DNA of 64,000 nucleotides from Chloroflexota bacterium (GTDB taxonomy: Bacteria > Chloroflexota > UBA11872 > UBA12225 > JAJDUF01): positions 821,395 through 885,394 of the forward strand of contig OZ243944.1 of the NCBI GenBank assembly GCA_965214295.1. The letters run 5' to 3'. The notes beneath the pieces are model-generated. The model did not search any database and was not told the origin of the DNA. It saw only the letters and a program-made list of their open reading frames with translations. A program made the position numbers and the translations under genes. Shown here piece by piece: positions 2,109 to 58,333 of this stretch. How positions within the stretch are numbered: position 1 is the stretch's first letter; the number at the start of each line of letters is the position of its first letter.

Positions 2109-2905
2109 AGCCGGCGGTGCCCCCTGGACCGCGATGCGGCCCGACACCGCATCAGTACCCACCAGGATGTGGTACAGGGAAGCACCTGTGGGCCACGCCC
2201 TCGGCATCTAGGTTGTTCGACGCCTCCACGACCGGTAGGAGAGCGCTGGGGACGCCGCTCCGAACGGGAATACTCCCGACGGGGAGGACTCTACTACACG
2301 CGCGGACAACGCGCTACTCCCGCTCGATGGTGCTGGTCAGCTTGAAGCTCCGCAAGCGATCCCGATACAGTTCGGCCAGTTCCAGCAGGCACACGATGAC
2401 GGTAGCCACACCCTCCTCGTGTGCCTCAAGCATGATGGCCTCCGCCTCTTCCCTACTCAACGACGGCACCGCCTTCTGGAGCGCGCGGACCACTTAGCCC
2501 ATCTCGTTGAACTCGTCATTGTGGAGCAGCACGCGGTAGCGCGGAATGAGACGCGACCGGCGCTCCATGTCCGGGGCAAGCTCCGGGGGCGCTACCTCCG
2601 GCATGACCATACCACTCTCCCCTCTAAGACCGTTGCAAAAGTCGTCATTCCCGCTTTCGCGGGAACCCAAAAATCGGCCCCCCAGGTTGGCGGAGAGCCG
2701 ACGTTGTATGGAGTCACCGGCACCATAGCACTCCGTCCGGGGAGTTACACAAAGGTTTCCTCGAGCACGGCTGTCCACTGCCGCAGGCCCGACCGCCGTG
2801 CCCAGCCACCTGCTAGTAGAACGTTGGGCAGCGCCCCCCCGTTGCTGACACGGCGGAGCCACACTACCCCCCAGCAGCACTGCGGCGCGCACCGCTGCCT
2901 ATCAC

Positions 2906-3607
<702 letters not shown>

Positions 3608-3640
3608 CGCACGATCTCGCCAGCAGAGCTTCCGGCCATG

Positions 3641-5803: not shown

Positions 5804-5974
5804 CAGTCACCCCTAGCAGGGCGTAGGACACTCCTCCGATACTCCGCGTATCGCTGTTGCCTTAGTATACGCTGCGTGCCCCCAAGCCACCGCAGAAACG
5901 AGGGATACCGCCGTCCCCGCCTCCCGGAACGCCGGCGCTGCAGCCCCAGCCTTCTCCCCCCTACCAAGAGAACG

Positions 5975-39782: not shown

Positions 39783-40999
39783 CAGTTCTTCTCCACCGGC
39801 GACGTGCGCGGCAGTATTCCCCGTTGCAGCTGCTCGCGCGCCGCCCGGTCCCGCCGTTCTTTATCCAAGATTTGCGCTGCCGTCGCATCCTGCGGAGTGG
39901 GCGCCGGTTGCTCCTGCTGCCCAAGAGCCGGCTGTTCACCGGCCCCCGCCCCCTCGGGCTGCGCCGCAGGAGTAGGACTTTGCCGACCTGACGCATCAGG
40001 CGTGTCCTCCTGCCCCTGTGACTGCTCCTGCGGAGCGCCGGCTGTTCCCGCGTCGTTGGGATCACGCAGCGCCTGCATCGCGGCTGCGATGTCCTCGGCC
40101 GCGGCGCGCTGGTGGGCGGCGGCTGAACGCGGCTCCTGGCCTTCCAGCCGCTCCTCGGCACGCTCTTGCTGGCTCTGCGCGTCTTGCAGCTTTTGCAAGG
40201 CTTCCTGGCGGCGCTCGTCGCCGGCATCCGGCGTTGCGGACGGTGACGGCGTTCCCGACGGTTGCGCCGACCCCGCCTGCTCTTGGAGCTGCTCTGCCGC
40301 GGCGGCAGTTTCCTCGCTAATCCGTTGCTGCTCTTGCCGGAGCTGCTGCAGTGCCTCCGCCGCGTCCGGCGGCGGCTCGTTTGCCAACTGCGTCGACCTG
40401 GCCGCGGCGTCTTCCTGTCGCTGCTGCAAGTTCCTGAGCTGCTCGGCTACCTCGTTCTGCGCTTGCTGCGCCTGCTGCTGGTCCTGCAGTTGATCGAGGA
40501 TGTCCTTGATGGCGAGCCGGACCACCTCGATGTTGCGGGCGGCCTCTTGGTCATGCGGAGTAAGCTCGAGTGCCCCCTGGTAAAACGCCACGCTTGCTTG
40601 GAGCGCGGAGAGTGCCTGCTGCACGTCACTCTCGCGCTGCGCCATGCCTTGCCGGAACTTACTGTTGCCGAGGTTGTACCGGGCCGCGGCCACAAGCTCC
40701 AAGTCCCGCGCCGTCCGATCCACCTGCCGGAAGCGTTGCTCCGCCTCGCCGTAGTCGCCCAAGGCATACTGAGCGACGCCCTGGTTGTAGGCCACCTCCG
40801 GCGAATCCGGGAGCTGGGCCGCTGCCGCGGTATAGGCCTCCAGCGCCGCCGCGTAGTCCTGCCGGTCGAAGAGCGCATTGCCCCGGCCGACCTCATCCCC
40901 CGGCCCGGCCGCGGGCCGGCCTGGGGGAGCGCACGCACTCAACGCGGCCCCCCACAGCACAATGAGGAGGACAATGGCGCTAGGTCGTCTTGCGTTCAC
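39779..40999 (-). CDS. BatC-like TPR protein with Gln/Glu-rich coiled-coil tail
   Basis: Lipoprotein-like signal, TPR repeats, then a long EQ-rich low-complexity region. Confidence 0.7.
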   Translation of the reverse strand: MNARRPSAIVLLIVLWGAALSACAPPGRPAAGPGDEVGRGNALFDRQDYAAALEAYTAAAAQLPDSPEVAYNQGVAQYALGDYGEAEQRFRQVDRTARDLELVAAARYNLGNSKFRQGMAQRESDVQQALSALQASVAFYQGALELTPHDQEAARNIEVVRLAIKDILDQLQDQQQAQQAQNEVAEQLRNLQQRQEDAAARSTQLANEPPPDAAEALQQLRQEQQRISEETAAAAEQLQEQAGSAQPSGTPSPSATPDAGDERRQEALQKLQDAQSQQERAEERLEGQEPRSAAAHQRAAAEDIAAAMQALRDPNDAGTAGAPQEQSQGQEDTPDASGRQSPTPAAQPEGAGAGEQPALGQQEQPAPTPQDATAAQILDKERRDRAAREQLQRGILPRTSPVEKNW

Positions 41000-42005
41000 G
41001 GATGAATGCCTCCCCTACTAGGAGCGCCAGGGCCAGCAACAGGAAAATTTGGTATCGCTCGTCATAGCGAATTACCGATTGCGACTGAGCTTCGCGCCGC
41101 GCCGCTGCTTTGACAAACTGCTCGTACACCTGGTCCAGGTTGATATTGCCGGTGGCGACGTTGAGGTACTTGCCATCGTGCGACGCAAGAGCGGTCTTGC
41201 GTAGCGTCTCGCCGTCCAGCTTGCTCCGCACCTCCTCGCCCTTGTAGGTCAGGAAGGTGCGTTGGCCGGCCTCGTCGGTGATGGGAATCCGTCTGCCGTC
41301 GCCCTCGTCACCGAGGCCGATAGCGATGATGCGGACCCCCGCCGCGCTGGCCTGTTCGGCAGCCTGGATGGGGAAGCTCTCGTGATCTTCTCCGTCGGTG
41401 ATGAGGATGATGTCCTTGAACCCGCGCTCGCTGTCGTCGAACACCTCGTTTAGGGCCACGCGAATGGCATCGCCTATGAGCGTGCCGCCGCGAGAGACAC
41501 TCTCCGGTGCAAGGTCTCGGAGCGCCAGGCGCATGAAGCTGTAGTCCAACGTGAGCGGGCTTTTCACGACGGCCGTGCCGGCAAACGCCACCAGCCCTAC
41601 GCGGTCCCCTTCCAAGGTGTCCAGCACGTCCGCAATGGCCAGCTTGGCCCGCTCCAAGCGGTTGGGAGCGAGGTCCTCGGCCAGCATGCTGCGCGACACG
41701 TCCACGACGAACACAACGTCACGTCCCAAGCGTTGCAGCTGCTCCGGCTGGGGATTCCACCGCGGCCGCGCCAGAGCGACGGCAATCAACCCCAGCGCCA
41801 GCAGAACCAGCGCCGCCTTGACGATCTGGCGCGGCCGGCTGACCGAAACGTTCACCACGGGGAGCAGCCCCGGCTCCCGGATGAACGTCCGCAGCGCCAC
41901 GCTCTTGCGGTGGAAAGCGTAGGCATAGAGCGCCGCCAGCGCCGGGAGCAGCCATAAAGCGTGCAGCCATTCGGAGTTGTGCATCAGGGCGCTCTCCGTA
42001 GCCAC
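40980..42005 (-). CDS. VWA-domain protein BatB
   Basis: Two N-terminal TM helices plus a vWFA domain (DVSRSMLAED, MIDAS). Confidence 0.8.
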   Translation of the reverse strand: MATESALMHNSEWLHALWLLPALAALYAYAFHRKSVALRTFIREPGLLPVVNVSVSRPRQIVKAALVLLALGLIAVALARPRWNPQPEQLQRLGRDVVFVVDVSRSMLAEDLAPNRLERAKLAIADVLDTLEGDRVGLVAFAGTAVVKSPLTLDYSFMRLALRDLAPESVSRGGTLIGDAIRVALNEVFDDSERGFKDIILITDGEDHESFPIQAAEQASAAGVRIIAIGLGDEGDGRRIPITDEAGQRTFLTYKGEEVRSKLDGETLRKTALASHDGKYLNVATGNINLDQVYEQFVKAAARREAQSQSVIRYDERYQIFLLLALALLVGEAFIRERKTT

Positions 42006-43048
42006 GTGTTGCTCAGGACGATCTCGGATAGCAGCAAGAGGCCCGCCACCAGCGCGTAGGGTAGGAACGCTTCATCGTGCCGGGAAAACTCCAGCGTCTC
42101 GATCTCCGTCTTCTCCAGACGGTCAATCTCCCGATAGACATTCCGCAGCGCGTCGCCGTCGGCCGCCACGAAGTACCGACCACCGGAAACCTCGGCGACG
42201 GTCCGCAAGGTCGCCTCGTCCATTCCGCCGGTCGGTACCCGCACGGTGCCCAACGGAGTCTGCACGGTGATGAACTCCTCGCCGCCCCCGATCCCGATGG
42301 CATAAATCTTGATTCCCCAGTCGCGGGCCAGTGCGGCGGCCTGGCCGGGCGTCAGGTCACCGGCGTTGTTGCGCCCGTCGGTGAGCAGGATGATTGCTTT
42401 GCTCTTGATCTTGAAGGCATCGGCGTTGCCGCTTTCCGTCCAGCGAGCGAGGTCTTCCTCGGCCCGTTTGAGACGCGCGGCAGCGAGTGCCAAAGCATCA
42501 CCGATGGCCGTCCCGTCTTCCGCCTCGAATTGGACGATCTTGGTGCCGCGCACAAACTGCACCAGGGCATCGTGCGCCCGCACCAGCGGCGCGGCCGTGT
42601 CGGCAAACCGGGCAAAGGCGATCATGCCGACGAGGTCATGCGGCCGGCCGGGGAGATCGTCACCGTTGCCCACGACGAACTCGGTAAACACCCGCTTGAC
42701 CACCTCCAGCCGGTTCAGGCGCTCACCCTCGAAATCCATCTCCGCCCGCATGCTGCTGGAGCGATCCACGACCATCTCCAGGGCTACGCCCTCCGTGGAC
42801 ACCCGTGCCTCGGATCGGCTCGTCTGCGGCCGGGCGATGGCGACGACGAGCAAGGCGAGCGCAGCCAAACGCAAGATCAGCAGCAGCGGTCTAGCCCGCA
42901 GACGCACACTGCGCCGCAGGCTGCCGACGTGCCGGAGCGACGAAAACCGCACGGTAGCTGTGCGCCCACGCCGCAGATAGAACCACGCCACCAGCGGCAG
43001 CAGCGTAAGCAGCAGAAACGCTTGGGGCGCTGCAAAACGCACAATCAC
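41984..43048 (-). CDS. VWA-domain protein BatA
   Basis: N-terminal TM helices plus vWFA (VVDRSSSM... MIDAS). Confidence 0.8.
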   Translation of the reverse strand: MIVRFAAPQAFLLLTLLPLVAWFYLRRGRTATVRFSSLRHVGSLRRSVRLRARPLLLILRLAALALLVVAIARPQTSRSEARVSTEGVALEMVVDRSSSMRAEMDFEGERLNRLEVVKRVFTEFVVGNGDDLPGRPHDLVGMIAFARFADTAAPLVRAHDALVQFVRGTKIVQFEAEDGTAIGDALALAAARLKRAEEDLARWTESGNADAFKIKSKAIILLTDGRNNAGDLTPGQAAALARDWGIKIYAIGIGGGEEFITVQTPLGTVRVPTGGMDEATLRTVAEVSGGRYFVAADGDALRNVYREIDRLEKTEIETLEFSRHDEAFLPYALVAGLLLLSEIVLSNTWLRRAP

Positions 43049-43057
43049 GCCTCCAAT

Positions 43058-44068
43058 TCAGGCCGCAGCCTCGACCACGACCTGTCGTTCCTCGGTCCTG
43101 GTCTGCTCGATGAATGTCCGGGCCGTGTCGAACGTCCGTTGGACCTCCGCTGTCGTCGGGGTAAGCTCGGCGAACTTCACCTGATCGCAGTGCGCGAGAA
43201 AGTTGCCGAGCGTGTCCGCCTGAGCCGTCGTGAACACGGCCGACCGCCGGGCCTCGCGCAGAAACTCCTCCGTCGTCCGTTCGGGCGCGTGGAGCGCGAA
43301 CCGATCCTCGATGTATTGGCGCAGAATCTGCGACACCTCCCGGTAAAACGCCTTCACTTCTCCCCGTTCGACGAGGTTCCGCTCCGCCAGCCGCTCTAGC
43401 TTGGCGGACGCCAGCTCGTCCGCCGTGTAGTGCAGCGCCGCCGCCGGCCGTTGCCGGCGCCGCCGGACATAGAGCACTCCCAAAGCGCCCAGCGCGAGCA
43501 CGGCGCCGCCGGCGATCCACAACCACGTGCGCGAGGAGGACGGCAACGCGACGACCGACTTGATCGGTCCCACGGTCAATGCGCTGCGTTGGTCGTCGAG
43601 CAGCGAGGTCACCTCTACCGGGATACGCTCGGTGGTGAGCGTGAAAGAGTCCGGCGCTGTGCCGTCGCCGCGGCCGGCGTGGGCACGGACGCTGAAGGTC
43701 AACGGCGGAATCTCATAGCTTCCCGACAGGAACGGGTGTAGCTCGTACTCCCGCGTCGTGACGTGCCGGCCCTGATCGTCGAGCGATACCGGCGCCGACG
43801 TCTGGTCGCCGATGGACCAGCCGCCAAGCTGCTGACCGAGCTGCGGCTCAACCAGCGTATAGCCCTCCTGCAGCACGGTCACAACCACGAGACGCAGGTG
43901 CTCGGCGATAGTGATGGTGTCCTTGTCGAGACGAACCCGGACCGTGAGCGGCCCACGCTCGAACGGGCGGTCCACGGCAAACGCCGGCGTCTCCGCCGCA
44001 CTCATCTCACCGACCTCGCACCCGACAGGGAGCAGGGCAAGCACGATGAGTACCCCCACCACCACCGG
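43058..44068 (-). CDS. DUF4381-like membrane protein of the MoxR/Bat operon
   Basis: Single N-terminal TM, extracytoplasmic domain, second TM plus RRRRQR stop-transfer. The ORF's 5' extension to 44170 is repeat-derived. Confidence 0.55.
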   Translation of the reverse strand, partial: PVVVGVLIVLALLPVGCEVGEMSAAETPAFAVDRPFERGPLTVRVRLDKDTITIAEHLRLVVVTVLQEGYTLVEPQLGQQLGGWSIGDQTSAPVSLDDQGRHVTTREYELHPFLSGSYEIPPLTFSVRAHAGRGDGTAPDSFTLTTERIPVEVTSLLDDQRSALTVGPIKSVVALPSSSRTWLWIAGGAVLALGALGVLYVRRRRQRPAAALHYTADELASAKLERLAERNLVERGEVKAFYREVSQILRQYIEDRFALHAPERTTEEFLREARRSAVFTTAQADTLGNFLAHCDQVKFAELTPTTAEVQRTFDTARTFIEQTRTEERQVVVEAAA

Positions 44069-44188
44069 CGCAGGTACGGGCCATGTCGTAGGGGCACAGC
44101 ATGCGGCACCCGGGCCCCTGCGGAGCGAGGGGACCATAGGGGTGCCGATGTTGCATCTACCCACAACCATTGTGCCGTTCCGTTCAGC

Positions 44189-45064
44189 CTACCGTCGGCG
44201 TTCCCGTGTGTGGAAAAATCGCACCAGGTCCTGCACATACGAGGTGCCGGTGGAGAGGGCAATAGAGTCGGCCCCGATCCGCCGCAGATCGCTGTGCAGT
44301 TGCTGGGCCTCCCGCTGCGCGCCGGCCCGGTACTCGTCGCGCACCCGTGCGCTGCGCGTATCTATCAGCAGCGTTTCACCTGTCTCCGCGTCCTCTAGCT
44401 CGATCAACCCGACGTCCGGTAGCTCCCGCTCGCGGTGGTCCTCGATGGTCACGGCGATCAGGTCGTGGCGGCGGCTGACCCGCCGCAGCGGCCGGTGAAA
44501 GTCCGAGGCGATGAAGTCCGACACCAGGAACACCACCGCCCGCCGCTTGAGCACCTTGGCCAGGTAGTCCAGGGCGCCGGGAATATCCGTCTCGGCCGCG
44601 CGCGGCTCGAAGCTGAGGAGCTCGCGGATCACCCGCAGGACGTGGCGGATGCCCTTTTTCGGCGGGATGTATAGCTCGATCCGCGCGGTGAAGATGAGCA
44701 GCCCCACCCGGTCGTTGCTCTTGGTGGCTGCAAAGGCCAACACCGCGCACACCTCCGCCGCCAGCTCGTTCTTGAGCCGCTCGACCGAGCCGAACCGACC
44801 GGAGGAGCTGAGGTCAACAACTAGCATGACGGTCAGCTCCCGCTCCTCCACGAACTGCTTGACGAACGGAGCGCCGGCGCGAGCCGTCACGTTCCAGTCA
44901 ATGGTGCGTACCTCGTCACCGGGCTGGTACTCACGCACCTCGGCGAACTCCATACCGCGGCCCTTGAAGGCACTCTCGTACTCACCGGCAAAGGCCTCAT
45001 TGACCACGCGCCCCGTGAGAATCCGAAGACGATGAACCTGCCGCATCAGCTCGTTAGAGATCAT
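44189..45064 (-). CDS. DUF58 family protein (MoxR-associated)
   Basis: VREYQPGDEVRTIDWNVTAR motif. Confidence 0.85.
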   Translation of the reverse strand: MISNELMRQVHRLRILTGRVVNEAFAGEYESAFKGRGMEFAEVREYQPGDEVRTIDWNVTARAGAPFVKQFVEERELTVMLVVDLSSSGRFGSVERLKNELAAEVCAVLAFAATKSNDRVGLLIFTARIELYIPPKKGIRHVLRVIRELLSFEPRAAETDIPGALDYLAKVLKRRAVVFLVSDFIASDFHRPLRRVSRRHDLIAVTIEDHRERELPDVGLIELEDAETGETLLIDTRSARVRDEYRAGAQREAQQLHSDLRRIGADSIALSTGTSYVQDLVRFFHTRERRR

Positions 45065-45133
45065 GGAGTCTCCCGATCACCAGATCGGCACCATCGAATG
45101 CCAGCGGTAGCGCAGACCCGGCGCGTCACCGGC

Positions 45134-46126
45134 CTACGGTACGAGCACATGATCGAATATCTGCTTGACCAAGTCGTCGGCGGTCCGCTCTTCCGCCTCG
45201 GCCTCGTAGCTCGGGATGAGCCGGTGGCGCAGCACGTCCGGCCCGATGGTTTTCACGTCCTGGGGCGTGACGTAGCCGCGCCCCAGCAGGAACGCATACG
45301 CCTTGGCCCCGAGGGTGAGGGCGATAGTGGCTCGCGGCGAGGCACCGTATTCGATCAGGTGAGCCAGATCGAGCCCGTATTCGCCCGGCGTCCGGGTGGC
45401 CTGGACAATATCTACGATGTAGTCCTTGATCTTGTCATCCACGTAGATTTCGTCCACCACCATTCGCGCCTGCAAGATGTCCTCCGGCTGCACCACCGGC
45501 TCCACGTCCGTCTTGGGCTGCGTCGAGGCCATGCGGTCCAGTATCCGGCGCTCTTCCTGCTTCGAGGGGTACGTCACCTTGAGCTTGAGCATGAAGCGAT
45601 CCACCTGAGCCTCGGGCAGTGGGTAGGTGCCTTCCTGCTCGATTGGATTCTGGGTAGCGAGCACGAGGAACGGCTCCACGAGCGCATAGGACTCATCACC
45701 CAGCGTGACCTGCTTTTCCTGCATCGCTTCCAGGAGGGCGCTCTGGACCTTCGGTGGGGCACGGTTGATCTCGTCTGCCAAGACGAGATGGGCAAAGATC
45801 GGCCCCTTCTTCGGCGTGAAGGAGCCATCGCGCGGGTTATAGATCAGCGTCCCGATGAGGTCCGCCGGCAGTAGGTCCGGAGTGAACTGAATCCGCTGAA
45901 ACTGCGCTTGGATGGCCTGCGCCAGGGTAGTCACCATCAGGGTCTTTGCCAGCCCCGGCACCCCTTCTAGCAACACATGTCCGCCGGTGAGCAACCCGAC
46001 AAGCAGACGCTCGATCATATACTGTTGCCCGACAATCACTTCTTCCAGCGCGAACATGAGCGTTCTCAGGAAGTGGCTGTGATCTTCGACTGCTCTCCCA
46101 ATCTGCTTTACGTCAACGGCCATCAC
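45134..46126 (-). CDS. MoxR-family AAA+ ATPase
   Basis: Walker A GVPGLAKT, Walker B LADEINRAPP, sensor motifs. Confidence 0.93.
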   Translation of the reverse strand: MMAVDVKQIGRAVEDHSHFLRTLMFALEEVIVGQQYMIERLLVGLLTGGHVLLEGVPGLAKTLMVTTLAQAIQAQFQRIQFTPDLLPADLIGTLIYNPRDGSFTPKKGPIFAHLVLADEINRAPPKVQSALLEAMQEKQVTLGDESYALVEPFLVLATQNPIEQEGTYPLPEAQVDRFMLKLKVTYPSKQEERRILDRMASTQPKTDVEPVVQPEDILQARMVVDEIYVDDKIKDYIVDIVQATRTPGEYGLDLAHLIEYGASPRATIALTLGAKAYAFLLGRGYVTPQDVKTIGPDVLRHRLIPSYEAEAEERTADDLVKQIFDHVLVP

Positions 46127-46531
46127 GTCCTACCTCCACGGCGACCACCCCCGACTTACGATTTTAAGCGACTCACGTCGCCTCCACCATACGCACAAAA
46201 CTGTCCTGGCCCCCTTCCCTATAGTCCCGCTGCTCCGCAGGGGGACTATAGGGGGGCCTTCATTGGAGCAGCTGGTTACGGCCCCATACCCCATTACCCG
46301 CTCGCCTCCGGCAGACTCCCCCTCTCCATACACGCGGAGAGGGGCTTAGGAGTGAGGAGAGCTGGCCGCGACCGGCAGTACGACTAGAGACCATTGTGCG
46401 GCGTGGAGGTTCCGGGCCGGTTGCGAGCAGATTACAGCCTCGCAACCGGCCGTCGGAGGGGCAGCGCGGGGCAAGGTAGAGAGCAAAGGAAACAGCCCGT
46501 CGGATTGCTCCGACGGGCCGTTCTCCAGTAG

Positions 46532-46605
46532 TATCCCCGGAGGGATTCGAACCCCCGACCTCTTGGTTCGTAGCCAAGCGCTCTGTCCAGCTGAGCTACG
46601 GGGAT
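46532..46605 (-). tRNA. tRNA-Arg (anticodon ACG), CCA not encoded
   Basis: Reverse complement folds as acceptor ATCCCCG/CGGGGAT, D-arm GCTCAGCTGGACAGAGC, anticodon loop CTACGAA, T-arm GGGGGTTCGAATCCCTC; closely parallels E. coli tRNA-Arg(ACG). Confidence 0.75.
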
Positions 46606-49850: not shown

Positions 49851-51485
49851 CTAGCCGGCCGGCTCGACGTAGCGGGCGGGTACGAAGCCTTCCCGCCCGA
49901 CCGGATCACGCACCGGCACCCACACCTCGCTGCGACCCGGCTGCGACCCGGTTCCCGTTACCTCCGGGCCGCGCACCTGAAGCTGCGTGCCTTCCAGCCA
50001 GGCCACCCAGCCGTGATGCTCCCACGCCCCTTGCTCCTTGGTCTCTCCCGCCGCGGCCGGCCACCGTGCTGCCCACTCCGGACGGGGGCGCAAGAACACG
50101 CCGCTGCCGTTGGTCCCGGCCACGACAACGTACTGCGCGGTTGCCTGTCCGGTGTCGCTAGCCGACGGTGCCGCGGTCGGAACGGCAAGCGCCGCCGCCT
50201 CGACACGCTGGAGATACCGTGCGGGTAGGTAGCCTTCCCGCCCGACCGGATCCCGCACCGGCACCCACGCCTCACTACTGCCCGGCTGCGACCCGGTTCC
50301 CGTTACCTCCGGACCGCGTAGCTGGAGCAGCGTGCCCTCCCGCCAAGCGATATTGCCGTGATGCGGATAGGCCCCCTCGCGTTGAGTAGCACCCGGCTCC
50401 GCGCGCCACCGCGCGGTCCACACCGGCTCCGGGCGCAGGAAGACACCCGTCCCACCGGAGTTGACAACGACTACCCACTCAATGGCCGGGGCCTCGCCCG
50501 CTACCGGACTGGCTGCCGGCTGGGCCACCGGGGCCGGTGTGGGGATCACCGTCGGTAGAACGGCCGGGGTCGCTACCGTCGTCTCCGCCACAGCGGTCGG
50601 TGCCGGTTGCACCGCAATCTCCGTTGCCGGTCGAGTGACAGTCTCCACTACCGGCGCCTGGGCCGCAGCCGGGGGCACTACGACCGCCGTTGCAGCCGGC
50701 GCTTGCGCCTGTCGTTGAGTCGGCGCGTCCGTTCGCGGTTGCGCCGTAGTATTCACGGCCGGCGCCTGGGCCGCAGCCGGGGATGCTCCCGCGGTTGTGG
50801 CTGGCGCTTGCATCTGTTGTTGGGCCGGAGGTACGACGACTTGACCTACACCGGATTCTGTCACCGGACTGCGGAAAAACAACCCACCGTTGACCACCAG
50901 CAGCACGGCAACGACCACAATGCCTGCCAAGACGCCGACGGCCAGCAAATAGCGCAACGCCGCCATACGGCGCCTAAAGCCCCAGACCGGAACTCGCGAC
51001 GGCAAGAGCACACGGGCTATTGCCGCGAAGACCAATCCCACCAGCAGAAACGGCCCCACTGCCACCATGTACAGCAGCCAACGCCAGTCCATTCGTTGGC
51101 GCGAGCTATGCCCACTACCACGCCCGGCGCCATCGGCGATCCAGCGTGCGAGTTCTTCGTCGGAGTACCACTGCCTGCCCGCGTCAGCGCCGCTGCCCGG
51201 CATCGCGGCCGGCCGAAGGGGTGTATCTACGCTCGATGCTTCATCTCCACTGGCGCCGCTCCCCTCGCCTGCCGCGGGCGAGGGCGCTTCCACGAAAGCA
51301 CCCAGCAACATGCTGTCGCGCAGCTCGGTAGCCCCACCCTCCGTATCGTCCGGTGCAGCATCCGGCGCATCGGCCGGCGGAGCTTGCACGTCCTTCTTCG
51401 GCACATGACCGTTGGATCGATCCCGTGGTTCAGCAGCAACCATGTTTCCGGCACTCCTTAGAATGTGCCCTCCGTTACCGAGCAA
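49851..51485 (-). CDS. membrane-anchored protein with two tandem SH3b-like domains
   Basis: TM (FLLVGLVFAAIARVLL), Ala/Pro/Thr-rich linker, two about 95-aa repeats (…GVFLRP.P.W.ARW…VRDPVGREG(Y/F)(L/V)PARY). The DNA copies are 49866-50160 and 50200-50490. Confidence 0.55.
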   Translation of the reverse strand: MLGNGGHILRSAGNMVAAEPRDRSNGHVPKKDVQAPPADAPDAAPDDTEGGATELRDSMLLGAFVEAPSPAAGEGSGASGDEASSVDTPLRPAAMPGSGADAGRQWYSDEELARWIADGAGRGSGHSSRQRMDWRWLLYMVAVGPFLLVGLVFAAIARVLLPSRVPVWGFRRRMAALRYLLAVGVLAGIVVVAVLLVVNGGLFFRSPVTESGVGQVVVPPAQQQMQAPATTAGASPAAAQAPAVNTTAQPRTDAPTQRQAQAPAATAVVVPPAAAQAPVVETVTRPATEIAVQPAPTAVAETTVATPAVLPTVIPTPAPVAQPAASPVAGEAPAIEWVVVVNSGGTGVFLRPEPVWTARWRAEPGATQREGAYPHHGNIAWREGTLLQLRGPEVTGTGSQPGSSEAWVPVRDPVGREGYLPARYLQRVEAAALAVPTAAPSASDTGQATAQYVVVAGTNGSGVFLRPRPEWAARWPAAAGETKEQGAWEHHGWVAWLEGTQLQVRGPEVTGTGSQPGRSEVWVPVRDPVGREGFVPARYVEPAG

Positions 51486-51698
51486 GACACCGTTGGACGG
51501 TGATGTCTTGCGGGATTAACGGGTTGCCGGAATACGGAGTAGCGGCCGCAGCAACGGTGACACGCCAGCTTGCATCCGCTGGGGATATAGGCTAGGCATG
51601 CGCTTGCGGTCTTGATGCCCCATAAGACACAGACACCACATCTGCCATCTACTGATGTATGATATGATTGCCACGGCGTCAGGCACTGGAGGGCTGAT

Positions 51699-51896
51699 GT
51701 GAAAACCACCATGAACATAGATGACCAGCTGGTGGAAGAGGCCCAGCGACTCACCGGCATTGGCCCAAAAACCGCTCTGGTGAGAGAAAGCCTACGCGCT
51801 TTGATCGAACGGGAGAGCGCCCGAAGACTGGCACGTCTCGGTGGGAGTGAGCCACAGTTGCAGTCCACTCCACGCCGCAAGATTGAGCCGGCATGA
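51699..51896 (+). CDS. vapB: type II antitoxin VapB (RHH/COG4423-like)
   Basis: MKTTMNIDDQLVEEAQRLTG N-terminus typical of VapB antitoxins; overlaps the vapC start by 4 nt. Confidence 0.75.
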   Translation: MKTTMNIDDQLVEEAQRLTGIGPKTALVRESLRALIERESARRLARLGGSEPQLQSTPRRKIEPA

Positions 51897-52271
51897 TCCT
51901 GGTCGACACTTCCGTCTGGATCAATCACCTGCGCGCCGCAGAGCCACGCCTCGTGTCCCTGTTGAACGACAACCGGGTACTGGTCCACCCGATGGTGATT
52001 GGTGAACTGGCTTGTGGCAACCTGCACAATCGGGGCGAAGTGCTGAAGCTCCTCAGCAGGTTAGCTGAGATATCCGTAGCCGCTGATGACGAGGTGCTCT
52101 TTTCCATATGAACGGCACCGACTGATGGGCCGCGGCATTGGGTACATTGATGTCCACCTGCTGGCAGCTACGGCGCTCGCCGGCCCCGCCCTACTTTGGA
52201 CGAGTGATCGCCAGCTCATGACCGTGGCGACAGACTTGCGCCTTGCCTACGAATTGCCTCGTTCACAATAG
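51893..52271 (+). pseudogene. vapC: vapC PIN-domain toxin with +1 frameshift near codon 72
   Basis: MILVDTSVWINHLR...VHPMVIGELACGNL...DEVLFSI* then the frame shifts to ...ERHRLMGRGIGYIDVHLLAATALAGPALLWTSDRQL. Removing a single base at about 52104 would restore a contiguous PIN domain. Confidence 0.65.
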
Positions 52272-52307
52272 CCGTCGCGGTCGCTGCCGCTACAATGGGG
52301 AAAACCG

Positions 52308-53402
52308 ATGTCCAGGGCACGTTGGCAAGGAGTCAACCTCGCCGGCTGGCTGTCGCAATCTCCGCTTGCACCCGCGCATATCGCTTCCTTCGTGAGCGAA
52401 GCCGACATCCGGCGGATCGCCACGTGGCAGTTCAACCACGTGCGCGTCCCCGTTGCAGCACAGTTCCTGTGGGACGCGGAGCGGGTGGCGCTGCACGAGC
52501 CTGGCGTGGCGGCGGTGGATCGGCTTGTGGATTGGTGTGCGCGGGCCGGTTTGCAGTGCTTCATTGCGCTGCACCTCAGCGGTAATACGGACCCGGATCC
52601 CCTCAGCGCACTACACCGGGAGGACGACCGGCAACAGCTCACCGCGCTCTGGGGCGCGGTCGCCGACCGTTACGCCAGCCGACCGGGGAGCCACCTGGCG
52701 TATGACTTGGTTCACCGGCCGACCGGGATCACCGCAGCTTCCTGGAACCGGACTGCCCGCTCTATCACGGAGGCCATCCGCGCGGTGGACACCCGGCACA
52801 CCCTCGTAGTCAGCGGGGCGGATGGCGGGCGTCCCGCCGGGTTTGACTCCTTGCGCCCAACACGCGACCCCAACACCGTGTACGCCTGTCACTTCTACGA
52901 GCCGGTGCTTTTCACCCACCAACAGCTAGCGACCACAGTGATGACACCAGACGCGCCCCATCATCGTGCGCGTCTGGCGCGTCAGGAGCACGGCGACGCC
53001 TATCGTGAGGCCGTGCCCTACCCCGGCAGCGCCCCGACGCCGGCGGCGTACCCGGAAGGTGCCATTGGCGAGTATCTGCGCGCCGAGGTGGGCCGGCGCT
53101 GGGACCGCGACGTGCTGGCGGCGGCGCTCGATCCGATCCTGGCGTTTCAAGAGATCTACGACCGGCCAATCTATGTCGCATCCTTTGGGGCCTCGTGTCG
53201 AGCGTCGCGGCGCAGCCGGCTGACGTGGCTGCGCTCCGTGCTGACGCTCTTCAAGGCGCACGACCTCAGCTGGTCATACTGGACCTACAAGGGGCTGGGG
53301 TTCGGCCTCATGGACCCCTGGGACGACCTCAGCGCGGCGACGGCCGACGATCCGACCGCCGGCTTGGACTACGACCGCCTCGCCCTCTTGCAGAGCACGT
53401 AG
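52308..53402 (+). CDS. glycoside hydrolase family 5-like protein lacking both catalytic glutamates
   Basis: GVNLAGWL start and TIM-barrel GH5 layout. However, the NEP acid/base motif reads HRP (LAYDLVHRP) and the nucleophile GEFG reads ASFG (PIYVASFGAS). Confidence 0.6.
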   Translation: MSRARWQGVNLAGWLSQSPLAPAHIASFVSEADIRRIATWQFNHVRVPVAAQFLWDAERVALHEPGVAAVDRLVDWCARAGLQCFIALHLSGNTDPDPLSALHREDDRQQLTALWGAVADRYASRPGSHLAYDLVHRPTGITAASWNRTARSITEAIRAVDTRHTLVVSGADGGRPAGFDSLRPTRDPNTVYACHFYEPVLFTHQQLATTVMTPDAPHHRARLARQEHGDAYREAVPYPGSAPTPAAYPEGAIGEYLRAEVGRRWDRDVLAAALDPILAFQEIYDRPIYVASFGASCRASRRSRLTWLRSVLTLFKAHDLSWSYWTYKGLGFGLMDPWDDLSAATADDPTAGLDYDRLALLQST

Positions 53403-53442: not shown

Positions 53443-55392
53443 TTACGAGCCGGTTGGAGCCTGCGCTGGACTTGATCCAGGGATGGTCAGGCGGCGGTAG
53501 AGCCGCAGCGCCACCTGCCAGGCGCGATAGAGCCGGGGATGAGGCACACAATCGTAGGCGCCCAGCCAGCGCACATAGCGTCCGCCAAACCCCTGCTTGA
53601 ACCGATATACCCCCCACAGCGGGTCATCTTCCCGTAGCTCGCTCGGTGCGCCCCACATATCGTAGGTATCGCAGCCATGCTCGCGTGCCCACTGCATCGC
53701 TCGCCACTGCAACAAGTGATTCGGCTGGTCGCGGCGATGGCGTGCGCCGGAAGCGCCATAGAGAAACCAGGCCCGGCGACCGTAACGACACACAACCAGG
53801 CCGGCCACCGTCTCGCCGGCCACGTCCGCCAAGAGCAGCACCGCTCCCTGCTCCTGGCGCAATGGCGGGCCAAAGCTGCCGGTACCGGCCCTGCTCGGAG
53901 GCAGCTTTGGCCCGCCAAGATGCTCCCACAGAACCCGGTAGTAGTCCAGTGGCCGGATGACAAAGTGATCGCGGGCGGCCGTTTCCTCATACAGGCGGTA
54001 AAAGGTCGCTAGATCGCCCGTGCCCCCCTCGCGGACCTGCACTCCACGTCGCTGCGCCAGCCGCACGTTGTAGCGCCATTTCGAGTGCATCCGCGCCAGC
54101 AGCTCATCATCGCTGCCACGCAGGTCCACGAGCATGGTTGCCGGGAGCTGCACTTGCTCCTCGGCAGGAAGGAACCCGGCAGCCTCTAGCTCGCGGGCTA
54201 CGACTCCGTTGTCCACCTCAACGTCGGGATCGAGCTTGAGCCACAGCACGCGATAGTCCCGCGCCCAGGCCACGAGCGCCCGCGCCACGTCGACCACATT
54301 CTGATCGTTCCACTCGGCCAGGACAGGGCCTTTCGGGACGTAGCCAATGCCGAGTCCCCGCACCGGCAAAGGGCGGCGTAGGACCAAGGCGGTCCCTACC
54401 AAGCGCCCGGCACGACGAAACGCCAGCCGATGCGGCGTCCAGCCCAGTTGCTCGCGGGCCGCCCCCCACGCCGCCGACTGTAGCAGGTGCGCGCCGGGCA
54501 GACTGCGGACCAGGTCGTCCCACTCGTGCGCGGGGACCGTCTCGGTCACCAAGTCCGCCTGCTGCTGCGGATGTGCCACCTGTGTTCCCGTGTGGAGGGC
54601 GATGGTGCCGAGCGCGAGCGGGCGGGCGGTGACTTGGGCAAAGCCGGCCGCCTGGAAGCGGTGTTGGAGTTGGCGACGGCTGAGAAACGCTTGCACCGAG
54701 GTCGGTAAGTAGCGGTAGGCTGCCCCATAACCGGCTACCGACGCACCCACGAGCGGCACGATGTGCCGGAAATAGTACCGGAAGAGCGTCCGAAAGACGG
54801 GCAATGTCGGCGAGGTAATCTCCAGCGAAGCCAGCCGCCCTCCGGGACGCAAGACGCGCTGGAACTCGGCCAACGCCCCGTCCAAGTCGGCCAGGTTCCG
54901 TACCGTAAAGGCGGTGACGAGAGCATCGAACGCATCGGCGCGCAACGGAAGGGCCAGCGCGTCTGCTTGCACGGGGAGCACGACCGCCGCCGGTCGGCCA
55001 TCCCGGCCCGCCGCTCGTCGTTGCAGCTTGGTACGCGCTACGCCGAGCATCTCCGCAGCAAAGTCGAGCGCCACGATCCGGCCGCCGTCCGGCATGGCGT
55101 CGGCCACTGCCAGGCTGAGATCGCCGGTCCCGGCGCCCACGTCGAGCACCGTCCGGGTTTCCGGATCAATAACCGCCGCCGCTGCGATCTTGCGCCAAGC
55201 AGCGTCGCGCCCCAGTGTCATCAACCGGTTCATCAGGTCATACCGCTGGGCGATAGCGTCAAACAGTGTACGCACGTACTGCGCCCGCGCCTGTCCGGTT
55301 GGGAGGTCGTCGGCCAAAGCCGCACCACACCTGGCACCATCCGTGCGGCTTTGGCCGACGTCGGCCGGCATGGACTGCCGTTCAGGTTGCAT
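53443..55392 (-). CDS. fusion protein: demethylmenaquinone/ubiquinone methyltransferase (MenG/UbiE) N-terminal domain + FemAB-family peptidyltransferase C-terminal domain
   Basis: YVRTLFDAIAQRYDLMN, LDVGAGTGD, RPGGRLASLE (UbiE/MenG) followed without a stop by FemAB motifs (WRYNVRLAQRRG, AWFLYGASG, WGVYRFKQGFGG). The N-terminal region contains the palindromic element 55309-55359. Confidence 0.75.
   Translation of the reverse strand: MQPERQSMPADVGQSRTDGARCGAALADDLPTGQARAQYVRTLFDAIAQRYDLMNRLMTLGRDAAWRKIAAAAVIDPETRTVLDVGAGTGDLSLAVADAMPDGGRIVALDFAAEMLGVARTKLQRRAAGRDGRPAAVVLPVQADALALPLRADAFDALVTAFTVRNLADLDGALAEFQRVLRPGGRLASLEITSPTLPVFRTLFRYYFRHIVPLVGASVAGYGAAYRYLPTSVQAFLSRRQLQHRFQAAGFAQVTARPLALGTIALHTGTQVAHPQQQADLVTETVPAHEWDDLVRSLPGAHLLQSAAWGAAREQLGWTPHRLAFRRAGRLVGTALVLRRPLPVRGLGIGYVPKGPVLAEWNDQNVVDVARALVAWARDYRVLWLKLDPDVEVDNGVVARELEAAGFLPAEEQVQLPATMLVDLRGSDDELLARMHSKWRYNVRLAQRRGVQVREGGTGDLATFYRLYEETAARDHFVIRPLDYYRVLWEHLGGPKLPPSRAGTGSFGPPLRQEQGAVLLLADVAGETVAGLVVCRYGRRAWFLYGASGARHRRDQPNHLLQWRAMQWAREHGCDTYDMWGAPSELREDDPLWGVYRFKQGFGGRYVRWLGAYDCVPHPRLYRAWQVALRLYRRLTIPGSSPAQAPTGS
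55309..55359. repeat. 51-bp palindromic element at the 5' end of the MenG-FemAB gene
   Basis: gtcggccaaagccgcac-cacacctggcaccatcc-gtgcggctttggccgac; it encodes ...GQSRTDGARCGAALADD... if the gene starts at ATG 55392/55371. Confidence 0.75.
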
Positions 55393-55456: not shown

Positions 55457-55510
55457 CCAGGTCTGCACCACTATAGCCGTCATCGGATTGTGCAGACCTG
55501 GCACGTCATT
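55457..55510. terminator. inverted-repeat hairpin ccaggtctgcac-N20-gtgcagacctgg + cacgtcatt (copy of 31874-31927)
   Basis: Located between the polyprenyl synthase stop (55509-55511) and the MenG start. Confidence 0.45.
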
Positions 55511-56585
55511 AGGACTGTCTGCTGAGGGCGTAGCGCACCAGCTCGGCCAGCGCCGCCCCCTGTGGGCTATCCGGCAGCCCCTCCAGACAGCGCGTGGCCG
55601 CGGCGCCAAACCGGAAGGCGACCGCGCGGGCGCGGCCAACGGCCGCGGACTCCCGTATCTCCGCCACAAACTGCCGGACGCGGCGCTCGTCCGTCGGCGT
55701 GCCGTCGGCCATCAGGATGTCCACGAGGGGATGCTGCGGTTGCGCCTCGAGGAAGTAGATGATCGGCAGCGTCATCGTGCCCTGGAGCAGGTCACTACCC
55801 ACCGGCTTCCCGAGCACTTCCTCGGTGCTCGTCAAGTCCAAAATATCGTCAATAATCTGGAAGGCCACGCCCAACTCCAGGCCATACTGCCGCATGCGGG
55901 AGACCACCACCTCGTCGGCTCCGTCCAGCATCGCGCCCGTCTGGCAGCACATTGCCAGCAACGAGGCTGTCTTGCTGCGTACCTTGGCCAAGTAGGTGTC
56001 CTCCAAGCGGCGTAGCTGCCCCGTGACCCCGGACGCACGGCCGGAAGCAGGATCACCGTTGAGGCTCAAGGGCAGCATCTCCCCCTGGCACAGCTCCATC
56101 ACAGCCCACGCGAAGACGCCCATAATCGCTGGGCTATCCAGGCTCGCCACGAACTCCGCAGCCTTGGCGAACAGATAATCGCCGGTCAACACGGCCAACG
56201 AGTTCTCAAAGACCGTATTGACTGTGGCCCGGCCCCGGCGGGCCGCACTCTCGTCGAGAATATCATCATGCACGAGGGTCGCCGTATGCAGCAGCTCTGC
56301 CGCTACGGCCAGGCGCTCGCGCCGGTCCAACGGCGTGCCGTTGAAGCCGGAGGCGAGCAGGACCAGCGCGGGACGTAGGCGCTTGCCCCCAGGACCGAGG
56401 ATCAGCCGCAGTGTCTGACCCAAGATCGGATGGTCAACGTCCGAGACGGCGTTGAGACGTCCCTCGACACCATCAAGCTCCGACAACACCGAGCCGAAGG
56501 GCGTGGAGGCAGCCGGCGGCCCGCCAGAGTTGAACGACGGTGGCAGGAGTGGTGCGGCTCTGGCGTCGTCAACGTCAGTAGTCAC
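55509..56585 (-). CDS. polyprenyl diphosphate synthase (hepta/octaprenyl-type, trans-IPPS)
   Basis: First and second DDxxD motifs (LVHDDILDES, FQIIDDILD). A GTG start at 56585 overlaps the TatD stop in a GTGA arrangement. Confidence 0.85.
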   Translation of the reverse strand: MTTDVDDARAAPLLPPSFNSGGPPAASTPFGSVLSELDGVEGRLNAVSDVDHPILGQTLRLILGPGGKRLRPALVLLASGFNGTPLDRRERLAVAAELLHTATLVHDDILDESAARRGRATVNTVFENSLAVLTGDYLFAKAAEFVASLDSPAIMGVFAWAVMELCQGEMLPLSLNGDPASGRASGVTGQLRRLEDTYLAKVRSKTASLLAMCCQTGAMLDGADEVVVSRMRQYGLELGVAFQIIDDILDLTSTEEVLGKPVGSDLLQGTMTLPIIYFLEAQPQHPLVDILMADGTPTDERRVRQFVAEIRESAAVGRARAVAFRFGAAATRCLEGLPDSPQGAALAELVRYALSRQS

Positions 56586-57376
56586 GCCGTTGTCCTCTGA
56601 CCCGTGTGTCCGGCACTGCCGAACAAGCGCTCGGCGTTCGCGGTCACGAGGGCTGCACACGCCGCCGTGGTCATGCCCCGCACGGTTGCCAGGGTCTCGA
56701 CCGTCGCCGGCAGGTACGCCGGCTCGTTACGCCGGCCCCGCCACGGCTGCGGGGGCAAGTACGGACAATCCGTCTCGACCAGCAGCCGCTCGGCCGGCAC
56801 TACGGCCGCCGCCGCCCGCAGCGTATCGGCGCGGCGATAGGTCAGCGGCCCGGCAAACGAGAGCAGCAATCCGGCAGCTACCGCCCGCTCTACGTCGCTC
56901 GACTCCCCGGCAAACGCATGCAGCACGCCACCAGCCCTCAGCCGGCGCTCTTCAACCGCCGTCAGCGCATCCGCAATCGCCGCGCGACTATGGATGATGA
57001 CTGGCAAGTCCAAGTTCTCGGCGAGATCGAGCATCGCTGCAAAGGCTTCTTGCTGTCGCGCCCGCGGCGCCAAGTCACGGTAGTAGTCTAGCCCGGTTTC
57101 GCCAATAGCGACCACGCCCGGCTCGGCAGCCAAATCTCGAATGGCCGCAACGCCGGCCGCGTCCGCTTGCTCGGCGTCGTGAGGGTGAATACCGACGGCT
57201 GCGTGCAACCGCCCCGGATAGCGCTGGGCGAGGGCCACCGCCCGGCGACTCGAAGCGAGATTATAGCCCACGACCACCAGCTGCGACACCGTTTTCGACT
57301 GCGCGCGCGCCAGTACCCGGCCCAGATCGTGAGCGAAAGCCGGGGCATTGAGATGCGCGTGTGTATCGAAGAGCAT
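56582..57376 (-). CDS. tatD: TatD-family metal-dependent hydrolase/DNase
   Basis: MLFDTHAHLN start and conserved His/Asp/Glu metal ligands. Confidence 0.88.
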   Translation of the reverse strand: MLFDTHAHLNAPAFAHDLGRVLARAQSKTVSQLVVVGYNLASSRRAVALAQRYPGRLHAAVGIHPHDAEQADAAGVAAIRDLAAEPGVVAIGETGLDYYRDLAPRARQQEAFAAMLDLAENLDLPVIIHSRAAIADALTAVEERRLRAGGVLHAFAGESSDVERAVAAGLLLSFAGPLTYRRADTLRAAAAVVPAERLLVETDCPYLPPQPWRGRRNEPAYLPATVETLATVRGMTTAACAALVTANAERLFGSAGHTGQRTTA

Positions 57377-57481: not shown

Positions 57482-58333
57482 TCATTCCTCCCGATGCAGG
57501 CGGCGATAGACCTCACGGCGCGGCTGCCCCGTTTCGGCGACGAGCCGGACCAAGGCTTGCCGGCGATCACCCAGCGTATCGCACAACGCGGTGAAGCGCC
57601 GGGCCAGCAGCGCGTCGTCGCAGCGCAGCAGCTCCGGCTCTCCCGCAAGGACCGTCGTCGGCCCGTCACCACTGCCTCGCAGCACAAGGACGAACTCGCC
57701 GCGCGGTGGCTTGAGTGCGAGCCGCGCCGCGACAACGGCGGCCGGCCCGCGCACGATCTCCTCGTGGAGCTTGGTCAGCTCGCGGCCCACAACGAGCTGC
57801 TGCGCGCCGGCAACGGCCGCGACGTCGGTAAGCGCCGCCTGGAGCCGATGCGGCGTCTCGAAGCACACGATGACACCCGGGAGGGCAACATAGCGCTCGA
57901 TGAGGTCGCGGCGGTCCTTACGCTTGCGAGGCAGAAAGCCCAGAAAGTGAACCGGCCCCGACCCGCAGCCGGCTACGGAGATCATGGCGCTCAACGCCGA
58001 GGGGCCGGGTAGCGGCACGACCGCGTGGCCGGCGGCGGCCGCGGCGTTCACCAGCTCCGCGCCAGGATCGCTGATGCCGGGCGTGCCGGCATCGCTGACC
58101 AGCGCGACATCGCCCTTATCCAGCAAGGCCAGGATGCGCGGCAACTGCCGGCGCTCGTTGTGCTGGTAGTAGCTGATGAGCGGCGTAGCGATCTCGTAGT
58201 GGCGCAGCAGCTTGGCCGTATGGCGCGTGTCCTCGGCGGCAATGTGACCGACGGAGCGCAGAACGTCCAGGGCACGCAGCGTAATGTCACCCAGATTGCC
58301 GATGGGCGTCGCAACGACAAACAATCGGCTCAT
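57482..58333 (-). CDS. rsmI: 16S rRNA (cytidine1402-2'-O)-methyltransferase RsmI
   Basis: LFVVATPIGNLGDITLRALDVLRSVGHIAAEDTRHT tetrapyrrole-methylase fold typical of RsmI. Confidence 0.9.
   Translation of the reverse strand: MSRLFVVATPIGNLGDITLRALDVLRSVGHIAAEDTRHTAKLLRHYEIATPLISYYQHNERRQLPRILALLDKGDVALVSDAGTPGISDPGAELVNAAAAAGHAVVPLPGPSALSAMISVAGCGSGPVHFLGFLPRKRKDRRDLIERYVALPGVIVCFETPHRLQAALTDVAAVAGAQQLVVGRELTKLHEEIVRGPAAVVAARLALKPPRGEFVLVLRGSGDGPTTVLAGEPELLRCDDALLARRFTALCDTLGDRRQALVRLVAETGQPRREVYRRLHREE

Follow-up and report, generated by a model that had tools for sequence, protein, structure and literature searches.

The hepS-menH-hepT operon of Bacillus is a familiar setting in which a menG-type methyltransferase gene stands beside the gene for a long-chain polyprenyl diphosphate synthase. 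A connection between menaquinone synthesis and cell-wall precursor synthesis is known from mycobacteria, where MenG and MenJ co-fractionate with MurG and lipid II in the intracellular membrane domain (IMD), which is rich in enzymes acting on polyprenol lipids (PMC6747930). Here we describe a single open reading frame (ORF) that joins a methyltransferase of the MenG/UbiE type to an aminoacyl-tRNA-dependent transferase of the FemAB/FemX type. It lies in a stretch of 64,000 nucleotides from a Chloroflexota bacterium (assembly GCA_965214295.1, contig OZ243944.1, positions 821,395 to 885,394), which is called the window throughout and is numbered from its first letter. A sequence-only reading of this DNA had proposed either a novel tailoring enzyme or a gene-fusion artefact. 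According to the analysis presented here, the fusion is almost certainly real and conserved, and we consider it rather probable, judging from family membership, conserved residues and gene context, that the protein is bifunctional and serves both demethylmenaquinone methylation and the aminoacyl-tRNA-dependent branching of a peptidoglycan precursor.

The coding sequence of the MenG-FemX fusion occupies positions 53443..55392 on the minus strand and comprises 649 codons from an ATG start, the coordinates taking in the stop, as established from the ORF listing, Pfam and NCBIfam profiles and full-length homologues. The sequence-only reading had given the frame exactly, the strand being a detail that it lacked. 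Use of the ATG at 55392 agrees with the relatives P0002 and P0005, which open with MQPER and MQTER, respectively. The predicted product is a protein of about 70 kDa with two domains: a class I S-adenosylmethionine (SAM)-dependent methyltransferase domain of the MenG/UbiE type (residues 35-270; 54583..55290, minus strand) and, after a short interdomain linker (residues 271-288, VAHPQQQADLVTETVPAH; 54529..54582, minus strand), a FemAB/FemX-type transferase domain (residues 289-628; 53509..54528, minus strand). The E-values of both domains are below 1e-45 and thus far beyond chance. Pfam and NCBIfam agree on the N-terminal MenG/UbiE domain and the FemAB domain that follows it, all motifs quoted in the earlier reading were found, and the frame between the two halves contains neither a stop nor a frameshift, as had been stated. 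The suggested checkpoint at about 54650 was misplaced, since it still lies inside the methyltransferase domain, some 70-120 nt from the junction; at the junction itself the fusion is in frame.

Relatives were collected by a search of 5.8 billion protein clusters, with source assemblies from ENA, NCBI, JGI and Logan. Full-length relatives with both Pfam domains share 42-90% identity with the window protein and measure 591-697 aa, and a domain-wise BLAST yielded about 37 independent fused clusters, next to about 15 tandem FemAB-FemAB proteins and about 60 standalone FemAB proteins. The search for the same architecture in relatives, recommended by the earlier reading, was thus positive down to 42% identity. 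Codons were compared between the window and loci L001, L011 and L012, which together represent four species-level genomes. All four read through the junction in frame and differ there by synonymous changes. Nei-Gojobori dN/dS values are 0.09-0.16 in the methyltransferase and 0.11-0.15 in the FemAB domain, at dS values of about 0.28-0.44 for both domains, and 0.08-0.20 in the linker. Such similarly low ratios indicate that the two halves experience comparable purifying selection. Linkers of the family members are of low complexity and measure 21 to 95 aa, as would be expected for a true interdomain linker.

With these data the suggestion of a gene-fusion artefact can be dismissed. The chance that two genes were merged in this window only, by an assembly or sequencing error or by a very recent read-through, is practically negligible, even though the window copy bears two private in-frame insertions and a close relative, P0015 (locus L007, ctg229953_5x_l 2863-5832), seems to have a split gene, with a methyltransferase of 384 aa and a FemAB fragment of 124 aa. 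The fused clusters come from different studies and assemblers, and the architecture has been kept through deep divergence with linkers that vary. Both insertions, which are absent from the aligned relatives, are multiples of three in loops predicted to be disordered and are probably real indels. One adds 17 codons (residues 12-28; 55309..55359, minus strand) flanked by a GCCGAC direct repeat, and the other adds 19 codons to the FemAB domain (residues 492-510, LGGPKLPPSRAGTGSFGPP; 53863..53919, minus strand), at the loop where staphylococcal Fem proteins bear their coiled-coil arm. We rejected P0015 as a real split gene because its contig has 5x coverage, the polyprenyl synthase is also truncated and several genes are broken; its split is likely due to frameshift errors in a low-coverage long-read assembly. 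An unfused, adjacent pair of menG and femAB was not found at the standalone FemAB locus L008, the tandem locus L009, the paired locus L010 or the standalone MenG loci L091 and L092, so that the alternative of related genomes encoding the two domains only as neighbouring genes is not borne out at the loci examined. One other arrangement, L056, in which a FemAB gene is followed by a small non-UbiE methyltransferase gene, was considered as a precursor of the fusion and discarded because its gene order is the reverse.

Separate production of the FemAB half from an internal start was also considered. In L011 an AGGAG sequence lies 5 nt before an in-frame GTG, a signal that is missing in the window copy, L012 and L004-L006, and this candidate was rejected; no conserved Shine-Dalgarno sequence with start codon was found in the linkers of these six. 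The two domains would be expected to be made as a single polypeptide.

The methyltransferase half is a member of the MenG-type family. It matches PF01209 (Ubie_methyltran) with 174 bits (cutoff 20.1; E 3e-51) over profile positions 4-232 of 233, and its score of 195.3 bits for TIGR01934 (MenG_MenH_UbiE) exceeds the curated NCBIfam cutoff of 158.35, which places it in this subfamily. The motifs RYDLMN, LDVGAGTGD, DF(A/S), DA..LP and LRPGGR occur at frequencies of 0.8-1.0 in 37 fused proteins. A Foldseek comparison with the PDB returned yeast Coq5 (4obw; E 6e-18, TM(target) 0.84). Standalone Chloroflexota MenGs show 43-53% identity to this half, a range that overlaps with the 46-56% measured when the methyltransferase half is taken from a distant member of the fusion family, which suggests that it evolves like an ordinary MenG. 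Demethylmenaquinone would then be its substrate, a view that draws on the family and on the adjacency of hepT.

The FemAB half is recognized by PF02388 with 162 bits (cutoff 24; E 3e-47), in three stretches over approximately residues 289-628. Its best phmmer match among solved structures is Staphylococcus aureus FemX (6snr; E 2e-38), covering query residues 289-492 and 528-631, and with Foldseek the same structure was found at E 1e-26 and a TM-score of 0.72, next to Weissella FemX (TM 0.81-0.82) and FemA (TM 0.71). The half thus has the two-subdomain GNAT-like fold of FemX and FemA. Conservation of functional residues was examined by comparison with the Weissella viridescens enzyme (Wv-FemX). 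K599, R480 and Y484, equivalent to Wv-FemX K305 (which we take to be the catalytic lysine), R211 and Y215, are present in all 37 fused proteins, and W318, equivalent to W39, in 36 of them. The position of K36 (K/R313) is K or R in 34 of the 37 and that of D108 (D/E388) is D or E in every one, the equivalent of Y256 is Y or W, and that of F304 is retained. Roles for K36, W39, R211, Y215 and Y256 have been assigned in the Weissella enzyme (PMC8280954). What is lacking is the coiled-coil arm of the staphylococcal protein. Aligned to 6snr, the query has nothing that corresponds to FemX residues 221-302 and shows a 35-residue gap at 213-247 instead; the coiled coil has been described as residues 235-297 (PMC8280954). 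At this position the fused family carries a short loop. Since Weissella FemX also does without the arm, its absence excludes the staphylococcal subtype and not the FemAB family.

An AF2 model built from a 20-sequence alignment shows two confident domains (mean pLDDT 82), with values of 80-94 in the methyltransferase and a dip to about 63 in the linker. Values below 50 occur at residues 1-28 and 497-512, where the private insertions lie.

The gene neighbourhood provides further indications of function. At all fusion loci examined, the gene immediately upstream encodes a polyprenyl diphosphate synthase. In the window this neighbour, noted already in the sequence-only reading, is a long-chain enzyme resembling HepT and solanesyl diphosphate synthase (55509..56585, minus strand; PF00348, 222 bits); these are its best NCBIfam matches, both under the equivalog cutoffs. 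The start of this gene is most likely a GTG that overlaps the tatD stop (GTGA, 56582-56585) and gives a protein of 358 aa, the mechanically derived ORF of 383 aa, up to 56660, over-extending into tatD. With stop and start overlapping in this way, tatD and hepT may be translationally coupled. The TatD-family hydrolase gene (56582..57376, minus strand; PF01026, 259 bits) is in synteny in L001-L007 and L093, and the string is opened by an RsmI-like tetrapyrrole-type methylase gene (57482..58333, minus strand), assigned by synteny, since its positional counterparts in L001-L006 and L093 match PF00590 (TP_methylase). The gene order of the window and its close relatives is thus rsmI-like, tatD, polyprenyl synthase, fusion and a convergent gene for a GH5 glycoside hydrolase (52308..53402, plus strand; PF00150, 92 bits), with the same layout in L001-L003.

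In other lineages of the family a Mur ligase gene follows the fusion directly, at the position taken by GH5 in the window, while the upstream string is unchanged. This was observed in L004-L006, whose fusions have 44-48% identity to that of the window, and in L093 (67% identity), which also shares genes further upstream with L001. The ligase of L004-L006 is MurE (TIGR01085, 423-448 bits, cutoff 257), with a stop/start overlap with the fusion in L004, and that of L093 is 47.6% identical to the MurE of L004. At least ten more MurE clusters come from contigs exactly as long as contigs that bear the fusion, and adjacency is probable there. The same upstream string in combination with a downstream MurE in L004-L006 and L093 points to hepT-menG::femX-murE as the ancestral layout; the clade of the window copy has lost the MurE adjacency. 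The two halves of the protein thus appear to mirror their neighbours, with a synthase for the menaquinone side chain on one side and the ligase for the diamino acid at stem-peptide position 3 on the other. No men, mqn or mur genes were found among the 34 window ORFs that were scanned for domains, a survey of the whole window in which some smaller ORFs were left out, and no MurE cluster was seen on the 2.74 Mb contig of P0003 among the 120 of 7,341 clusters listed. Nothing relevant came from Rfam, tRNA or promoter/terminator scans of the sequence surrounding the fusion gene.

The MurE proteins next to the fusion also offer a weak lead on the acceptor. All four (L004 9833-11374, L005 9831-11363, L006 9884-11488 and L093 9881-11440) have EDPR or EDSR in place of DNPR, the motif of MurE enzymes that add diaminopimelate (DAP) (PMC3829189), a possible sign of lysine or ornithine at stem-peptide position 3; their NCBIfam names are nonetheless those of DAP ligases. 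Ktedonobacter, a cultured member of the Chloroflexota, has an ornithine-containing peptidoglycan with a Ser/Gly interpeptide bridge (PMC3236041), and the presence of such a bridge in this phylum implies a need for Fem-type enzymes.

Regarding its distribution, the fusion family is real but narrow and confined to one Chloroflexota lineage. In an exhaustive HMM search, a profile of 20 fused sequences run against 1.84 billion representatives at 50% identity returned only three full-length fused representatives (P0024, P0005 and P0121) versus 7,097 single-domain matches below 1e-30. The named fusion members are all metagenome-assembled genomes (MAGs) of Chloroflexota, some of them labelled Dehalococcoidia, and no sequence identical to the exact window protein is on record. 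A scan of species genomes gave mostly tandem FemAB genes among the 80 loci listed, with the fusion in L011 and L012 only. In a simple neighbour-joining tree of FemAB domains the fused ones form one clade with moderate support (69 of 100 bootstraps), from which it follows that the fusion probably arose once.

Proteins of about 750-800 aa with two FemAB domains in tandem, and FemAB genes lying side by side in pairs, are found widely in Anaerolineae and in other Chloroflexota (e.g. L009 7001-9277, L010 5932-8125, Bellilinea caldifistulae L079, Anaerolinea thermophila L070 and many of L013-L090), and the N-terminal FemAB modules of the tandem proteins form a clade of their own (100 of 100 bootstraps). 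In one protein, P0133, a third domain of the GNAT type has been added to the tandem. An enzyme domain fused ahead of a FemAB module is thus a recurring theme in Chloroflexota, the partner in the present case being MenG. No description of a MenG-FemAB fusion was found in the literature; the architecture is undescribed but unsurprising, both domains being from well-known families.

These results can be combined into the following scheme. The N-terminal domain would be the MenG-type enzyme of the lineage, completing menaquinone synthesis with a SAM-dependent methylation. The C-terminal domain would act as a FemX-type non-ribosomal peptidyl transferase that takes Gly, Ala or Ser, the candidate donors, from an aminoacyl-tRNA and attaches it as first branch residue to the diamino acid at position 3, in either lipid II or UDP-MurNAc-pentapeptide. 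The fusion probably originated in an ancestor with the arrangement tatD-hepT-menG / femX-murE, when the neighbouring menG and femX genes lost the boundary that separated them. [quoted passage not shown]

Several observations weigh against this bifunctional scheme. Three of the eight precursor-binding residues of Weissella FemX are replaced (Y103 by I/L/V, N38 by G and T209 by V/I), and the score for NF047883, the equivalog model of the Weissella-type FemX, is 63.9 bits versus a cutoff of 500; the FemAB half is thus not orthologous to the UDP-MurNAc-pentapeptide-lysine N6-alanyltransferase. The methyltransferase half likewise falls under the cutoffs of the equivalog models (NF001244, 192/216; NF001241, 170/327; TIGR02752, 153/420), and with both halves under every equivalog cutoff their exact substrates have to be inferred. 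The pTM of the AF2 model is 0.57, so that relative domain orientation and interface are undefined. In the clade of the window copy murE is not adjacent to the fusion, and other pairings of a methyltransferase with FemAB exist, which leaves room for functional cooperation between such domains.

This last observation bears on the possibility of a coupled tailoring enzyme, in which both domains act successively on one, possibly new, substrate instead of in two pathways, for example a methylated and aminoacylated polyprenyl-linked or peptide intermediate, or an aminoacylated quinone-related compound. FemAB is combined with other class I methyltransferases in P0266 (zinc-ribbon, Methyltransf_23 and FemAB in one protein), in P0211 from a low-GC organism (FemAB-methyltransferase, repeated) and in L056 (5965-7620), where a FemAB gene is followed by a Methyltransf_11-like ORF. 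Furthermore, the fusion is stable through deep divergence while both halves miss their equivalog cutoffs, and natural-product pathways, too, employ the FemAB fold, in aminoacyl-tRNA-dependent peptide synthases (9wqy/9wqx, TM 0.79). The pairings with non-UbiE methyltransferases could be due to chance or could hint at cooperation, and class I methyltransferases are so abundant that chance fusions are to be expected. Moreover, the methyltransferase half passes the MenG/UbiE subfamily cutoff, keeps the UbiE-specific N-terminal motif and resembles standalone MenGs no less than it does distant fused copies, the context splits cleanly into hepT by the methyltransferase side and murE by the FemAB side, and no biosynthetic-cluster genes were found near the loci examined. 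We consequently regard a coupled tailoring enzyme as distinctly unlikely; the earlier proposal of a novel tailoring enzyme has gained no positive support, as both halves keep the hallmarks of their families and the hepT/MurE context fits two tethered housekeeping activities. A broader notion, that the covalent link is functional at all, either by creating a workstation for polyprenyl lipids (a hard-wired IMD) or by joint action on one new substrate, seems improbable to us; the recurrent pairings in P0266, P0211 and L056 hint at the joint-substrate version.

The FemAB domain might also act, independently of the MenG domain, on an acceptor outside peptidoglycan, such as a membrane lipid, a glycan or a protein. 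The loss of murE adjacency in the window clade and the replaced binding residues would fit this, as would the frequent location of unfused relatives beside glycosyltransferase and polysaccharide genes. On the other hand, the best matches in sequence and structure are transferases that use lipid II or UDP-MurNAc-pentapeptide, the equivalents of R211, Y215, W39 and K36 are retained, and MurE is encoded directly downstream in both the 67% and the 44-48% lineages and probably on the additional contigs. This possibility is therefore unlikely. That one of the halves is a decaying, inactive passenger was considered only since gene fusions sometimes precede the loss of a domain, and there is no direct evidence for it; with dN/dS equally low in both halves, catalytic and cofactor motifs in all or nearly all of the 37 proteins and two confidently predicted domains, it is very improbable. 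We thus prefer the bifunctional reading, in which the two activities belong to menaquinone synthesis and to peptidoglycan-precursor branching.

The remainder of the window holds some further features. An Ala/Pro-rich ORF of 544 aa (49851-51485, minus strand) has no Pfam match at 1e-5 and ends in a pair of internal repeats of about 90 aa (…GVFLRP.P.W.ARW…VPVRDPVGREG.(L/V)PARY…); its orthologues in close relatives show a faint SH3_3 match, and it may be a cell-wall-binding protein. The intergenic region between this ORF and GH5 (about 51500-52300) has a GC content of 0.56-0.60 versus about 0.67 elsewhere, and gave no Rfam match at gathering thresholds. A complete aerotolerance-like operon of the BatA-D/MoxR type is located at 37812-46126 on the minus strand, with genes for a MoxR AAA protein, DUF58, a hypothetical protein, BatA-VWA, VWA, TPR and BatD. 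Upstream of it lies a tRNA-Arg(ACG) gene (46531-46605); no other RNA gene was found in the window.

If the proposed functions are correct, the protein would be a natural "Rosetta-stone" fusion of respiratory quinone synthesis and cell-wall precursor branching, two pathways that use polyprenyl lipids at the inner membrane face; mycobacteria are so far the one case in which the two have been shown, through membrane fractionation, to be coupled in space. It would also offer a compact construct for probing the tethering of a FemX-type enzyme to a membrane-peripheral partner, as well as the bridge chemistry of uncultured Chloroflexota. A more practical point is that current database names cover one domain only ("ubiquinone/menaquinone biosynthesis methyltransferase" or "peptidoglycan pentaglycine glycine transferase"), and such annotation of proteins of about 600 aa conceals half of their function. 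The general significance is modest, given a small family built from two well-known enzymes.

It is useful to compare the fusion with the described systems that it resembles most. With MenG, UbiE and Coq5 it shares SAM motifs I, post-I, II and III, the N-terminal RYDLMN and the Coq5 fold, but those enzymes are standalone proteins of about 235-255 aa, whereas the fusion carries a FemAB part of 360 aa at its C-terminus. S. aureus FemX (FmhB, lipid II:glycine glycyltransferase) and MurM of Streptococcus pneumoniae have the same two-subdomain GNAT-like globular core, and their expected role, addition of the first branch residue at stem-peptide position 3, is the one proposed here; in contrast to S. 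aureus FemX, the fusion lacks the coiled coil of about 60 residues, is joined to a methyltransferase and has an identity of only about 24%. W. viridescens FemX (1ne9/4ii9), a UDP-MurNAc-pentapeptide:L-Ala transferase, is also devoid of a coiled coil, fits with a TM-score of 0.82 and has binding residues that are kept in the fusion, whereas the S. aureus enzyme, which uses lipid II, is nearer in sequence to the FemAB half. The tandem FemAB-FemAB proteins of the same phylum (P0037, L009, L010, L079) possess the same C-terminal FemAB module with 40-46% identity; they carry another FemAB in front, as would suit the addition of one bridge residue after another, where the fusion has a quinone methyltransferase from a different pathway. 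Finally, the mycobacterial IMD provides a precedent for placing the last steps of menaquinone synthesis near lipid II synthesis. In that system the proteins are separate and their membrane partitioning was shown experimentally, whereas in the Chloroflexota protein the connection is covalent and a benefit of co-localisation may be supposed by analogy.

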